From: an uncultured Desulfovibrio sp.
Lineage (GTDB): Bacteria; Desulfobacterota; Desulfovibrionia; Desulfovibrionales; Desulfovibrionaceae
Assembly: GCA_900553145.1 (NCBI GenBank)
Contig: USCL01000001.1
Coordinates: 1-61,788, forward strand
Reading direction: 5' to 3'
Length of the DNA: 61,788 bases
In this document: positions 19,292 to 29,160 of the stretch, in pieces
How positions within the stretch are numbered: position 1 is the stretch's first letter
Layout of the letters: each line of letters starts with the position of its first letter
Made by a program: the position numbers and the translations under genes
Notes under the pieces: generated by a model
Seen by the model: the letters and a program-made list of their open reading frames with translations, nothing else
The model's database searches: none
Told to the model about the DNA's origin: nothing

Positions 19292-19540
19292 TCAAAACGT
19301 CGCTTCCTGCCCGGTGGCTTGGGCCAGTTCGCGGAAAAGGCGCAGGCTTTCTTCGGCTTCGGTCTTCTCCATTTTGTGCATGGCGAACCCGGCGTGAATA
19401 ATGATGTAGTCCCCGATTTCCACTTCCTCGGGCAACAAAATCCCGGAAACGGTCAGGCAGGTCGGCCCGTTGCCCACGGTGGCCTTCAGCATTCCGTCTT
19501 CCGATTTTTCAATGACTTTCGCAGGGATGGCAAGACACAT
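19292..19540 (-). CDS. hypC: [NiFe]-hydrogenase assembly chaperone HypC/HupF
   Basis: MCLAIPAKV start and GDYIIIHAGFA motif; 82 aa. Confidence 0.95.
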   Translation of the reverse strand: MCLAIPAKVIEKSEDGMLKATVGNGPTCLTVSGILLPEEVEIGDYIIIHAGFAMHKMEKTEAEESLRLFRELAQATGQEATF

Positions 19541-19736
19541 ATCGAGTCCTTTCGCTGATTGTCGGCCCCGCGGGAACGGAAGGTTCCAAAAAACCGGATG
19601 CCGTGCGGGGAACCGTTATAGTATCCATCCTCAAGCGCCCAGGCAAGCCCGAACCCCCGATTTCGCATGAGATATTCACGAAAAGAACGACCGCACATTA
19701 TTGACATCCCCATCGTTCGGCTTTATGGGTAGTGCT

Positions 19737-20309
19737 ATGAATACGCTAAAGCCCATCAAAGACGCAACGACCGGCTTCTCCCGCTCCGTGCTGGGGACGC
19801 TGCTTTTTGCCCTTGGGGTTTTTCTGTGTTCCTCCTTCTCCGCGCAAGCGCACATAGACAGCGACGTCAGCAAACAGTTTGAAGCCCTCCTTGAAGCGGC
19901 CCCTTCGGCGGACATGCTCAAGGAGCAGCTCTCCAAGCTGGACAGCCATGAACTTGGCCCGCAGCTCCAACGGTTCGACGCCGTTGAGGAGACTTCGGAT
20001 CTCGTCGAGGCGTCGAGTGACTGGCGGCGGCTTGACGCGGCGCTTGCCCGCTCAGAGACGAATCTCTTCACAGGCATTTCCGAAACGCTCAGCGGCAACA
20101 TAAGCCAAACGACGGCACGTACGCCCAAGAGCGCCATCGACAAGACGCCTTCGCAATCCTTGGCGCATGCCGTCGCGCTGGCTTCAGTGCCCGTCTTGCC
20201 GCAGAGATCCGTCATGCCTGCCGCGCTGCCCATCGGCACGCCCATCTGTTTCCTGCCCGCCGAACGCGGGCTCGTTTCCTACCCCACGCCTCCTCCATCC
20301 GGTTGCTAG
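19737..20309 (+). CDS. Secreted hypothetical protein upstream of secDF; candidate translation-arrest (monitoring) peptide
   Basis: Hydrophobic signal (GTLLFALGVFLCSSFS-AQA), soluble body, Pro-rich C-terminus ...YPTPPPSGC; the 3' end is complementary to the secDF RBS. Confidence 0.65.
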   Translation: MNTLKPIKDATTGFSRSVLGTLLFALGVFLCSSFSAQAHIDSDVSKQFEALLEAAPSADMLKEQLSKLDSHELGPQLQRFDAVEETSDLVEASSDWRRLDAALARSETNLFTGISETLSGNISQTTARTPKSAIDKTPSQSLAHAVALASVPVLPQRSVMPAALPIGTPICFLPAERGLVSYPTPPPSGC

Positions 20310-20492
20310 AGCTTCCGCTTTTCCGTCCTTCGCTTTTTGCGTGACAGAAAAGCCCTGACTCGCGAGCAGCCGGTTTTCTGCACTCTTCACACGTCTCCCG
20401 CAGAATATCGGAACATCCGACTCAGTGTGCGTCCTGTCGGCGGTTTTGCCGTTCCCGACAGCATTCTGCTCCTGCAACCGTGTGAGAGAGGC
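20288..20492 (+). promoter_or_regulatory. Structured leader sequestering the secDF Shine-Dalgarno
   Basis: 20288-20312 pairs ungapped with 20468-20492 (18 Watson-Crick + 2 G-U of 25); internal hairpins CAGAAAA/TTTTCTG, TCGGA/TCCGA, CTGTCGG/CCGACAG and GCAGAAT/ATTCTGC. Confidence 0.6.
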
Positions 20493-20496
20493 TTTC

Positions 20497-23172
20497 ATGA
20501 AACTCTCGTTCCGATATGCGATTGCCGCCATCGTCATGGCCGGCGCGCTTTTCCTCCTGTCTCCGACGCTTATGCCGGAAGACGTCAATATGCCGGGCGC
20601 TTCCCGGATCAGCCTGGGCCTCGATCTCAAAGGCGGCGTTCAGCTTACCCTGGGCGTGGATACGGACAAAGCCGTTCAGTCCGCCCTCATCAACAGCGGG
20701 CAAGTACTGCGCCAGAAAGCCCGTGAAGCCGGGATCACCGTCCTCGGGCCCCGTCAGATGCCCGGCGGCGTTCAGGAACTCATCATCGCCCGAGCCAATC
20801 AGGTCGACGCGTTTCTGGCCCTCGCCAAGAAGGACGCCCCGCAAGTCGTGCCCGGGACGCCCCGGGCCGGTTCCGACGGTGCCGTCCACCTGCCGTACTC
20901 GTTCACTCCCGCCTTCGTTAAGCAGACGCAGGATCTGGCCGTGGATCAGGTGCTGCGCACCATTTCCAGCCGCATCGACCAATTCGGCGTGGCCGAACCG
21001 GATATCCGCAAGCAGCAGGGCGACCGCATCCTCATCCAGCTTCCCGGCCTGACCAACGTCAACCGCGCCGTCCAGCTCGTCGAGAAGTCCGCCGACCTGT
21101 CCTTCCATCTCGTCCGCGACGATATTTCTCAGGGCTATCTGCCCCCCGGCGTCGCCTTCTACCCCATGACGGGCAAGCACGGCGAAGCGACCAACGCCAA
21201 GCTGGCGCTCGACACCACGCCGCTTCTGAGCGGCAAGGAAGTGGCCGACGCCCGCCCCGGGTTCGACAACAAGAACACCTCGATGGTCAGCCTGTCGTTT
21301 ACGCCGCGCGGCGCGGCCCTGTTTGAAATGGCCACCGGCGAACACGTCGGCAAGCGCCTCGCCATCGTACTGGACGGGACCATCCACAGCGCGCCGGTCA
21401 TTCAGGAAAAGATCGCGGGCGGCACGGCCAGCATCAGCGGCCAGTTCACGCCCGAAGAGGCGCAGGACCTCGCCATTTCCCTGCGCTCCGGCTCCCTCGC
21501 GGCCCCCGTCCATGTGCTTGAACAGCGCACGGTAGGCCCCGCCCTCGGCGAAGCGTCCATCACCAGCGGCATCCTCGCCGCCCTCATCGGGACGCTGGCG
21601 GTCATGATCATCATGCCCCTGCGCTACGGCTGGTCCGGCATGCTCGCCAACGGCATGCTCCTCTGCACCCTCAGCCTGCTCATGGGCGGCATGGCCGCGC
21701 TCGGCGCGACCCTGACCCTGCCGGGCATCGCGGGCGTCGTGCTGACCATCGGCATGGCCGTGGACGCGAACGTCCTCATCTTTGAACGAATACGCGAGGA
21801 GCTGGCGCTCGGCCTGACGCCTCCCAAAGCCATCAAGGCGGGGTTTGAGCGCGCCAACCTTTCCATCGTGGACTCCAACCTGACGACGATCATCGTCGCG
21901 GCCATCCTGTACCAGTTCGGGACCGGCCCGGTACGCGGTTTCGCCGTCACCCTGACCCTCGGCATCATCGCTTCCATGTTCTCGGCGATCTTCCTCTGCC
22001 GCATCGCTTTCGACGCATGGATGAAGCATACGGACGGCACGCGCCTCAGCATGCACGGCCCCATGGAACTGCGCGCCATCTCGGGTTACCTGTCCCACTT
22101 CCCCTTCCTCAAGCGCGTAAAGCACGTGGGCGTGTTGACGCTTCTGCTTGTGATGGTGGCGGTCGCCGTAGGCACGTGGCGCGGCGGCCTCCAGTACGGC
22201 GTCGACTTCTCGGGCGGCGTCGCGGCGCAGGTCAGGTTCGAGCATCCCGTTTCGGACAAGCAGCTTATCGGCGCGCTTGATCCCATGCACCTCGAAGGCC
22301 TGATGACCCAGCAGTACGGCGACAACAATTCCGTTTGGCTGCTCCGTTTCGGCCTGCCCGACATGCCCGCGCAACAGCTCGGCGAAGCGTTGCTCACACA
22401 CCTCCAAACCGTGGATGATGGCGGAACGGTTTCCTTGGATCGTCTGGAAACGGTCGGCCCCAAGGTCGGCAAAGACCTCCGCAGTTCGGCTTTGGAAGCC
22501 GTCTACTACGCGCTGCTCCTGATCACCGTGTATATTTCGGGCCGTTTCGAACAGCGTTGGGGCACGGCCGCCCTGCTCGCCGGATCGCTTACGGCCACGA
22601 TGCTCGCCCTCCAATGGATGGGAGTGCCTACGGAAGGCCGCATCCTTGCGGCGCTGATCCTGACCCTCTTCCTGTGCTGGCGGTTCCGGCTCTCCTTTGC
22701 GGCGGGGGCGATGGCCAGCCTGATATTCGACGTCACGACGACTACCAGCCTGCTGGTCATCCTCGGGCAGGAAATCGATCTGAATATCGTAGCGGCGATT
22801 TTGACCATCATCGGCTATTCGCTGAACGATACCATTGTGATTTACGACCGGATCCGTGAAACCCTGCGGCGGGAGAACCCCGACTCGCCGCGCCCGCTGC
22901 CCGAGATCATTCAGGAAGCGCTTGGCGACACCATGAGCCGTACCCTGCTGACCGCAGGCACGACGCTCGTGGCGGCCCTCGCCCTGTTCCTGCTCGGCGG
23001 CCCGGTTATCTACGGCTTCGCGTTGACCATGCTTATCGGTGTTTTCATGGGAACCATTTCCTCCCTGTTCGTCGCAGCGCCAATGCTCCCCCTGTTTGGC
23101 GATACGACATCGTTCAAGACGGCCGTTACCCTAGGCGTCTTTGAGCGTCCCGGCGAACACGGTGTGGTGTGA
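20497..23172 (+). CDS. secDF: Fused protein translocase subunit SecDF
   Basis: SecD motifs LGLDLKGG, RIDQFGVAEP and GMAVDANVLIFERIREE, then SecF motifs GVDFSGG, VGPKVG and GYSLNDTIVIYDRIRE, all in one ORF. Confidence 0.95.
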   Translation: MKLSFRYAIAAIVMAGALFLLSPTLMPEDVNMPGASRISLGLDLKGGVQLTLGVDTDKAVQSALINSGQVLRQKAREAGITVLGPRQMPGGVQELIIARANQVDAFLALAKKDAPQVVPGTPRAGSDGAVHLPYSFTPAFVKQTQDLAVDQVLRTISSRIDQFGVAEPDIRKQQGDRILIQLPGLTNVNRAVQLVEKSADLSFHLVRDDISQGYLPPGVAFYPMTGKHGEATNAKLALDTTPLLSGKEVADARPGFDNKNTSMVSLSFTPRGAALFEMATGEHVGKRLAIVLDGTIHSAPVIQEKIAGGTASISGQFTPEEAQDLAISLRSGSLAAPVHVLEQRTVGPALGEASITSGILAALIGTLAVMIIMPLRYGWSGMLANGMLLCTLSLLMGGMAALGATLTLPGIAGVVLTIGMAVDANVLIFERIREELALGLTPPKAIKAGFERANLSIVDSNLTTIIVAAILYQFGTGPVRGFAVTLTLGIIASMFSAIFLCRIAFDAWMKHTDGTRLSMHGPMELRAISGYLSHFPFLKRVKHVGVLTLLLVMVAVAVGTWRGGLQYGVDFSGGVAAQVRFEHPVSDKQLIGALDPMHLEGLMTQQYGDNNSVWLLRFGLPDMPAQQLGEALLTHLQTVDDGGTVSLDRLETVGPKVGKDLRSSALEAVYYALLLITVYISGRFEQRWGTAALLAGSLTATMLALQWMGVPTEGRILAALILTLFLCWRFRLSFAAGAMASLIFDVTTTTSLLVILGQEIDLNIVAAILTIIGYSLNDTIVIYDRIRETLRRENPDSPRPLPEIIQEALGDTMSRTLLTAGTTLVAALALFLLGGPVIYGFALTMLIGVFMGTISSLFVAAPMLPLFGDTTSFKTAVTLGVFERPGEHGVV

Positions 23173-23486
23173 TGGCGGGAATTCTCCTCTCCCCGCCTCG
23201 TTTCCATGAACATGGGAACATCGACGCTCCCCTGTCGGTGTTCCCGGAGGACAGGATTCACCCCCTGAGATTCCGTCCTCCAAAGACGACGCGTCGGGCG
23301 TTTTACGGCCGCCCGGCGGGTTATGCAAACGCGGATTCCGGGTTTTCTCCTCCACCCGGGCTCACCTCCTTTCCCCTGTGAAGGTGACCGCGTTCGGGCA
23401 GCATCCATCCCCCTGAGGATGTCGCCCCTCTCCCCGAACGGCGTCGGCACTCCCTCCTCAGTGCCGGCGCCGCTTCTTTTGGAAAA

Positions 23487-28785: not shown

Positions 28786-29160
28786 ATGCCTATTTCATCA
28801 TTCACACAAAGATTCATGTGCACAGTTTTTGTGTTCACCATGATCTGTGGAGTATGGCAATATGCAGCAGTAGAGAATACTCTCTATTTCGAGGATAGAG
28901 AAACCTTCGTATCCGATGAAATCTGCGAATATGCCGTAACGCAGCGTATTGCAGAGCATAAGCGTCCACATTGTAATACGAATGCAAGCGGGCTGGAATC
29001 CCTCCTCCCGTTGCTTTCCATCCTGCTCGGTTTTCTCCTCTATGAACCCGTCGTCAGGAAGCTTCATCTTTGCCGCCCGCAAAATGATTTCCTTCCCAAA
29101 CTATGCGACTTCCACGGGATGCTCCCACTCCCGTTCGCACCTCCGCGCATCCTCCCTTAA
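28786..29160 (+). CDS. Small membrane/secreted hypothetical protein with Pro-rich tail (candidate regulatory uORF)
   Basis: N-terminal hydrophobic segment, Cys/His-rich middle, second hydrophobic stretch, C-terminus LPLPFAPPRILP; TTGACA at 28718-28723 upstream; start uncertain (GTG 28774 possible). Confidence 0.5.
   Translation: MPISSFTQRFMCTVFVFTMICGVWQYAAVENTLYFEDRETFVSDEICEYAVTQRIAEHKRPHCNTNASGLESLLPLLSILLGFLLYEPVVRKLHLCRPQNDFLPKLCDFHGMLPLPFAPPRILP

Follow-up and report, generated by a model that had tools for sequence, protein, structure and literature searches.

A signal-bearing leader upstream of a second secDF paralog in Desulfovibrionaceae: a candidate export-monitoring arrest peptide with relatives before nutrient transporters

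The stretch of DNA analyzed here (the window) comprises 61,788 nucleotides (nt) of an uncultured Desulfovibrio sp. (assembly GCA_900553145.1, contig USCL01000001.1), and our subject is a leader open reading frame (ORF) of 190 amino acids (aa) that ends 187 nt upstream of a gene for a fused SecDF. We posit that the leader is a cis-acting, export-released ribosome-arrest peptide that induces a spare SecDF; this reading, in which stalling, release, and induction are drawn by analogy from SecM, VemP, and uA_LPPP, appears to us the probable one. The conserved tail of the leader is also found before other loci, and the secDF leader is therefore one member of a family, probably an undescribed class of arrest leaders. 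The best reading of this family is that of a leader cassette: the tail recurs, with shorter spacers, before about nine loci per genome, mostly transporters.

The force-released arrest peptides known so far act on Sec or YidC genes; those known from non-Sec genes are either of the RAPP type or CutF-like, with a leaning toward metal and redox genes. Taken alone, the secDF locus would add a new arrest-motif class together with a VemP-like two-paralog switch in a gut bacterium. It would do so in a lineage left unnamed by the main text, as available, of a screen of 30,000 genomes, which has no word beginning with “Desulfo” or “Bilophila” (PMC10987492). Of broader interest is the repeated use, within one genome, of a single homologous tail before nutrient transporters.

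The leader and the second secDF paralog

The elements at the locus are as follows (SD, Shine-Dalgarno sequence):

19737..20309, + strand: leader ORF, candidate export-monitoring arrest peptide, 190 aa, ending YPTPPPSGC-stop
19737..19850, + strand: Sec-type signal peptide, residues 1-38, core 18-32, cleavage predicted by eye after A38
20022..20048, + strand: conserved internal block W96..LDAALA104, a possible cis element for release (speculative)
20247..20297, + strand: conserved C-terminal motif C171-x-L-P-x-x-R-G-L-V-x-[YF]-x-[TL]-P-P-P187, stall predicted at the prolines (codons 20289-20297)
20288..20312, + strand: 5' (anti-SD) arm of a predicted long-range helix, which takes in the PPP codons and the stop
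20310..20496, + strand: structured intergenic region of 187 nt, including a rival-helix strand around 20383-20393
20468..20492, + strand: 3' arm of the helix, holding the secDF SD (GAGG, 20488-20491)
20497..23172, + strand: fused secDF, second paralog (secDF2), 891 aa, Pfam SecD_SecF_C, SecDF_P1_head, SecD_1st, and Sec_GG

An earlier reading of the window's letters, the original prediction, had described an ORF of about 190 aa with a cleavable-looking signal peptide and the end YPTPPPSGC, and translation, hydropathy, and the residues AQA followed by H at positions 36-39 confirm this description. The hydrophobic stretch spans residues 18-32, and the Kyte-Doolittle 15-residue maximum is 2.2-3.0, at residue 18-20, in 8/8 orthologs. 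Across 15 aligned sequences, L22 and A38 are invariant, as are A102 and L103 of the internal block, whose W96 and A104 are conserved in at least 90%; the count of invariant columns within residues 169-187 is 11/19. The proposed arrest motif is indeed polyproline without RAPP, but PPPSGC was too short a definition of it: the conserved part runs from C171 to P187. The residues after PPP are variable, yet the final residue is Cys in 14 of the 15 sequences. The ratio of nonsynonymous to synonymous differences (pN/pS) is 0.17-0.24 in the C-terminal motif, rising to 0.40-0.52 for the signal peptide and 0.67-0.80 for the linker; pS within the motif is about 0.5, and the low ratio there therefore indicates selection on the protein. 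The leader protein matches no Pfam family at cut-off and no NCBIfam family. Its AlphaFold model, built from a 15-row alignment, has a predicted template-modeling score (pTM) of 0.16 and no folded mature domain, with reasonable confidence for helix 16-32 only.

In the available parts of the screen, which define scope for every citation of it below, monitoring substrates are recognized as small unannotated ORFs before a sec or yidC gene, with a signal or transmembrane segment, a conserved C terminus, and a spacer of >30 residues (PMC10987492). The leader has all four features, and its spacer from hydrophobic stretch to PPP, 142-172 residues in 8 orthologs, is consistent with the long spacers reported for Sec-monitoring substrates (PMC10987492). 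The view of the leader as a monitoring substrate came through the sequence tests applied to it, but its extension to secDF of Desulfovibrionaceae in general did not: among the 30 best SecDF matches in 151 genomes of the family, yajC lies upstream and the leader is absent in 28/28 other fused-secDF loci, a count that leaves out the studied locus and G125. A distant SecDF locus (L069), inspected among 80 loci listed, also has yajC upstream.

The downstream product is a full fused SecDF. The other copy in the genome is a split secD-secF on contig C6, behind a gene that we take to be yajC from sequence likeness. In a quick SecD tree of 43 sequences, the 10 leader-bearing copies form one branch (SH-like approximate likelihood-ratio test 100, length 0.62) versus 33 yajC-linked copies. 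The secDF2 paralog is carried by 9/15 Bilophila genomes, and the leader precedes it at 8/8 loci that have upstream DNA, the ninth (G156) being cut at the contig start. The organism studied is itself taken for a Bilophila species, from the label of a homolog with 76% identity. Metagenomes contain 54 loci with the leader, 51 of them with a downstream start in range; their 15 distinct downstream forms, mostly from one species, all start as SecDF. In the sister-genus genomes G125 (L002:1013-1459) and G167 (L229), the leader before secDF2 bears a signal but its tail is degenerate (VFFALSPP), and the gap to secDF2 is 35-47 nt. Two leader versions in our collection (P0025 and P0033) are frameshifted, and four database proteins (P0053-P0056), in which a PF05167 N terminus is joined to the leader tail at a shared short word, are probably assembly chimeras and were set aside.

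A predicted long-range helix over the secDF2 start

The ungapped pairing of 20288-20312 with 20468-20492 that had been proposed (18 Watson-Crick and 2 G-U pairs in 25) was borne out, as was the presence of the secDF SD in its second strand: GAGG lies 5 nt before the secDF ATG at 20497 and is invariant in 8 loci. The helix appears in both the minimum free energy and the centroid structure of 20270-20520 (z = -4.8; 0/200 shuffles fold as well), and in free mRNA the SD is paired with the 5' arm at a mean probability (P) of 0.91. Stalling was modeled by holding single-stranded a ribosome footprint from -12 to +16 around the second-last Pro, which lowered the opening cost for the secDF start region, 20.2 kcal/mol in the free mRNA, to 11.5 kcal/mol. 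Across the 8 secDF2 loci the drop is 1.2-12.6 kcal/mol, and the SD is predicted to pair with the footprint at P of at least 0.85 in 8/8. As controls served 95 ordinary gene pairs with a comparable gap, sampled from 200, of which 3/95 reach a P of at least 0.75 and 12/95 lose at least 1.2 kcal/mol. A consensus scan finds no promoter or terminator in 20310..20496, and Rfam no family in the 5 loci checked. An RNA switch at secDF2 is plausible, its size uncertain.

Proposed stall and release, and objections to them

In the cycle that we envision, the leader tail in the exit tunnel would stall the ribosome with a proline of PPP in the P site, and a Sec-driven pull on the signal-led chain would free it. 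When export is slow, the stall would last, the helix would be kept open, and secDF2 would be translated; a lasting stall could also shield the secDF2 mRNA from Rho or decay. RNA contigs offer a weak hint in favor of this reading: contigs from four runs in two studies, the RNA nature of two of these runs being a guess, span the leader and end at 20248, 20287, 20293, and 20200. The secDF pieces in the same runs are merely scattered, contig depth cannot rank genes, and there is no DNA-run control.

Several findings weigh against this reading. Covariation is missing from the helix, with 0/16 pairs changed on both sides; the pairing register shifts between species, the 25-bp register is lost in more distant ones, and the 8 secDF2 loci are kin rather than independent cases. 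Leader ends joined in silico to unrelated intergenic regions reach SD pairing at a P of at least 0.75 in 39/200. The competing helix about which the original prediction had cautioned is real, taking the SD at P = 0.56 when 20280-20308 is single-stranded and at 0.38 when 20275-20312 is. Opening in the stalled state still costs 11.5 kcal/mol versus a control median of 8.9, 4/8 loci gain just 1.2-2.4 kcal/mol, and a mock footprint at the studied locus gave -3.9. Beyond secDF2, the SD pairs with the footprint in just 14/32 non-secDF loci, above the 20% background but not general. The genome also has two EF-P-family genes (G000:C225:4705-4866 and G000:C4:6732-6890), and uA_LPPP stalled Escherichia coli ribosomes only in vitro (PMC10987492). 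Finally, export feedback makes less obvious sense at transporter loci.

A family of leaders with a common tail

One point of difference from the original prediction is that the motif is not specific to secDF. The tail, [RHWY]G-h-h-x-h-x-x-[PA]PP in its family form, closes nine signal-bearing leader ORFs in the genome: the secDF leader and eight others, before transporters and other genes. Paralogous leader ORFs were first reached through weak matches of the leader profile. A census of the genome by leader architecture, together with a motif scan, gave 10 C-terminally anchored matches, 8 of which we accepted as real and 2 of which we discarded; the reversed genome gave 2. A refined profile, partly built from family sequences, recovers exactly 9 loci. 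In the ninth member (G000:C333, L325) the layout is unlike that of the others: the tail has 26 residues, and a sodium:solute symporter follows after 9 nt.

Members are 115-210 aa long, with an N-terminal hydrophobic stretch (15-residue Kyte-Doolittle value 1.75-3.0 in 26/26 measured) and the tail 2-8 residues before the stop in 25/26 loci measured. Tail sub-types are CxLPxxRGLV (secDF), SWRGL, SAYGL, and RGMLP; a protein search with an SWRGL/SAYGL alignment found the tail intact in 71 among the best 120 of 125. The inspected members stem from nine genera of Desulfovibrionaceae. Profile matches occurred in 27/401 and 21/221 genomes of the family, about half of them rejected after inspection, and neither the 41 genomes searched from the order's other families nor the 73 from the wider phylum yielded a credible member. 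One of the profiles (alignment A5, 144 positions, two full-length rows) is less sensitive, and 3 phylum-level matches lie outside the inspected set, where the profile matches L214, L222, and L223 are also placed. Weak matches without a terminal PP or the leader layout were rejected (L212, L215, L217-L221, L252-L258, L261-L264, and likewise L312, L313, L316-L321, L335, L337-L344, L358-L361); L260, whose tail fits but whose N-terminal segment is weak, is a doubtful member.

The window itself holds a second member, followed by a transporter gene:

28786..29160, + strand: second family member, 124 aa, two hydrophobic stretches, tail HGMLPLPFAPP plus 4 residues
29354..30790, + strand: YeiH-like (PF03601) membrane transporter, after a 193-nt gap

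A paralogous pair of this leader and the YeiH-like gene lies at G000:C125.

Where a downstream start follows a non-secDF leader, the product is a membrane or exported protein in 31/32 loci, mostly a nutrient transporter, the exception being one soluble amidohydrolase. The products include DctA/SDF symporters, NMT1-type and DctP binding proteins, CstA, lactate permeases, TctB, TerC, sodium:solute symporters with or without DUF3311, YeiH-like transporters, amino-acid permeases, an Mrp/NuoL-like subunit, an unnamed membrane protein, and a conserved 29-31 aa membrane peptide, with orthologous loci, the unnamed protein, and the peptide classed by likeness or hydrophobicity. The 32 exclude L277 and L278 (no clear same-strand neighbor), L251 (permease ~730 nt on), and L273 (contig end). 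The 60 nt after the leader stop are C- and pyrimidine-rich (skew 0.18 at 44 loci versus 0.0 at 200 controls), which fits Rho loading or further anti-SD strands. CCTCC within the PP codons (30/36) was first taken as anti-SD selection, a view that we abandoned because ordinary PPP runs carry it in 52/117, making the enrichment weak.

We consider it possible, though rather doubtful, that in gut Desulfovibrionaceae a portable stalling cassette coupled to export serves as a regulon that has no transcription factor. If so, with about nine copies per genome, the synthesis of nutrient transporters, of a small membrane peptide, and of a spare SecDF would depend on how active the Sec translocon is, and the coupling would extend to ion-motive force or membrane-insertion capacity. 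Independently of this, the family is a test set for what signal-bearing arrest leaders of non-Sec genes sense, and a common tail with varied N termini and targets permits direct swaps.

Two SWRGL leaders with intact tail and promoter, L277 (G157:C403) and L278 (G155:C8), have no clear same-strand gene within ~340 nt and are possibly orphaned; in G000, G154, and G161 the orthologous leaders stand before an NMT1-type binding protein. Leader L315 (G048:C59) is followed by a proton-translocating subunit like Mrp/NuoL, and this would connect the family with membrane energetics. Behind RGMLP-type leaders in five genomes lies a hydrophobic 28-31 aa peptide with a strong SD and the end LGY/F-I/F-GKK (G000:C269, L324:295-381, - strand; L348; L352; L353; L330, two copies), to which the Pfam scan assigns no match; in G125, two copies sit just upstream of the secDF2 unit.

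Alternative explanations

The stall could be set by a ligand instead of by export: as in CutF/CruR or TnaC, a metabolite or metal in the periplasm or tunnel would be sensed, with the tail sub-types reading different ligands. A signal peptide with a C-terminal PP is a CutF-like layout, as far as that system is set out in the available portion of its source (PMC9973294), and nutrient transporters lie downstream. The sub-types SWRGL, RGMLP, SAYGL, and CxLP track gene classes, the C-richness after the stop resembles Rho loading sites, and CzcI is among the nearest named ESM Atlas clusters of the dctA leader (0.93, 87 features). Against this stand the mature part, which has no conserved Cys/His cluster, C171 of the tail being its only invariant one; the drifting linker (pN/pS as given above); the lack of a DUF2946 match; and the occurrence of an identical SWRGL tail before unrelated substrate classes. 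We judge ligand sensing unlikely.

Alternatively, the main role of arrest could be to hold the mRNA at the Sec translocon, where the membrane protein encoded downstream would be synthesized and inserted in place, instead of sensing export stress. Such a localizing role has been proposed for SecM, and it would suit a family in which many unrelated transporter classes share one tail, nearly all products are membrane or exported proteins, and SD pairing is absent at 18/32 non-secDF loci. Tethering accounts less well for the secDF2 SD, so strongly hidden in free mRNA (opening 10-23 kcal/mol) that regulation fits better, for the soluble amidohydrolase behind one leader, and for the many transporter genes of the genome, most of which lack such a leader (nine members in all); we regard it as improbable too.

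A third explanation dispenses with arrest: the leaders would be small secreted or membrane accessory proteins with SecDF or the transporters as their targets in trans; the tail would then be a binding element and the helix a by-product of Pro codons. The failure of the helix to covary, the frequency with which Pro codons catch an SD in control joins, and that of CCTCC in ordinary PPP runs all agree with it. The leader model, however, lacks a folded domain; strong conservation is confined to the last 17 residues, 2-8 residues before the stop in 25/26 loci measured; the 73-390 nt gaps to the next gene are structured; and the downstream partners are mutually unrelated, leaving this explanation with a slim chance. 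That the ORF is a chance frame over a conserved RNA element, as its frequent annotation from another ATG and the absence of any assigned family might suggest, is scarcely credible given that in 8 species the frame stays open over 179-212 codons with indels that preserve it, that synonymous changes are spread throughout the motif, and that the hydrophobic stretch is retained.

Comparison with known arrest leaders

Our preferred reading, an export-released arrest peptide, can be set beside known leader systems. The papers cited in this section are used from the portions available. By sequence, the closest known tail is that of uA_LPPP from Planctomycetota, which stalls with the third LPPP codon in the P site and is efficient on Bacillus subtilis ribosomes (PMC10987492). 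Both leaders have a signal peptide, a spacer, and [LT]PPP a few residues before the stop (PMC10987492); LPPP or XPPP in the last 15 residues together with a signal peptide, the features of the uA_LPPP motif, are found here as TPPP. LPPP itself occurs in G151, G152, and the SWRGL sub-type, and T replaces L in most secDF2 leaders. In contrast to the leaders described here, which precede secDF or transporters in Desulfovibrionaceae, uA_LPPP lies upstream of secA in another phylum, and 6 of its sequences lack the RGLV block and the constant Gly 7 residues before PPP (PMC10987492).

The genomic layout is closest to that of Vibrio, in which secD1/F1 is accompanied by vemP-secD2/F2 (PMC11470409). As with VemP, a signal-bearing leader with a long spacer precedes a second secDF paralog while the housekeeping copy stands apart, and a possible mid-chain cis element is present in both (PMC11470409). 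The secDF leader differs in having a tail that ends in PPP, a fused secDF as its target, and, in neither the leader nor its alignment, a motif like RxxxWKxxNxxY (motif per PMC10987492). SecM-secA shares the architecture and the anti-SD logic (10.64898/2026.10.26.761930), but the leader has no PF06558 match at E <= 1 and no FxxxxWIxxxxGIRAGP, and its target is secDF. In ESM Atlas, SecM is the nearest named cluster to the leader (0.92), a lead only, because the 151/256 shared features fall below the 170 typical of members.

ApdA/ApdP and the RAPP-like RQH leaders are likewise small signal-bearing upstream ORFs with a C-terminal di-proline, before secDF and non-Sec genes (PMC10987492, PMC12992588). 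The tails described here have [TL]PPP or [FLGT]APP in place of R/Q/H-[AG]-P-P, and their conserved Arg lies 8 residues before the first Pro. CutF/CruR leaders have a signal peptide, PP in the last 15 residues, and a same-strand neighbor within <1000 nt that is often a transport gene, with cis control via an SD stem-loop or Rho (PMC9973294); here, by contrast, there is neither a Cys/His metal motif nor a DUF2946 match, and the neighbors are organic-nutrient transporters and secDF, not metal genes. LudP, with uDF_DGMK-stop, is a genus-restricted secDF leader missed by the first screen, with a C-terminal element of ~15 residues, but its motif, DGEK, is unrelated and it belongs to Clostridia (10.64898/2026.10.26.761930).

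For the dctA leader, the nearest named ESM Atlas clusters are CzcI, DUF6769, and SecM (0.93), which are leads only. The same feature comparison links this leader (L226:1225-1608) to a Bacteroidota hypothetical-protein cluster at 0.96 and to DUF6769 at 0.93; the Bacteroidota cluster and DUF6769 may be analogous leaders in another phylum. An ESM structure search returned no template-modeling score above 0.36. Our literature searches yielded no description of such a Bilophila leader, although the presumed secDF table of the screen may still list one; B. wadsworthia is in its genome list without a row in the secA table or the examined yidC rows (PMC10987492). The searched supplementary files of PMC12992588 contain no match for Bilophila, Mailhella, SWRGL, or RGMLP.

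Promoter and neighboring features

The remaining features around the leader and secDF2 are these:

19701..19729, + strand: putative sigma-70 promoter, TTGACA (19701-19706), 17 nt, TATGGG (19724-19729)
23439..23472, + strand: terminator-like hairpin 3' of secDF2, a consensus match only (4 sites in the scan versus 4.6 expected by chance)
19292-19540, - strand: lone hypC-family gene, divergent from the leader

The promoter escaped the consensus scan because of its weak -10 box. In 8/8 orthologous loci, TTGACA stands 35-36 nt 5' of an in-frame ATG with TA 17 nt later, and in 8/8 no SD lies between TTGACA and the leader ATG; across the genome, TTGAC at 35 or 36 nt before the start occurs in 15 cases among 1839 long ORFs. 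This combination of promoter spacing and missing SD suggests that the leader mRNA is leaderless, with transcription starting at the leader ATG, 19737. The divergent hypC-family gene is also the neighbor of the leader in G152 and G155.

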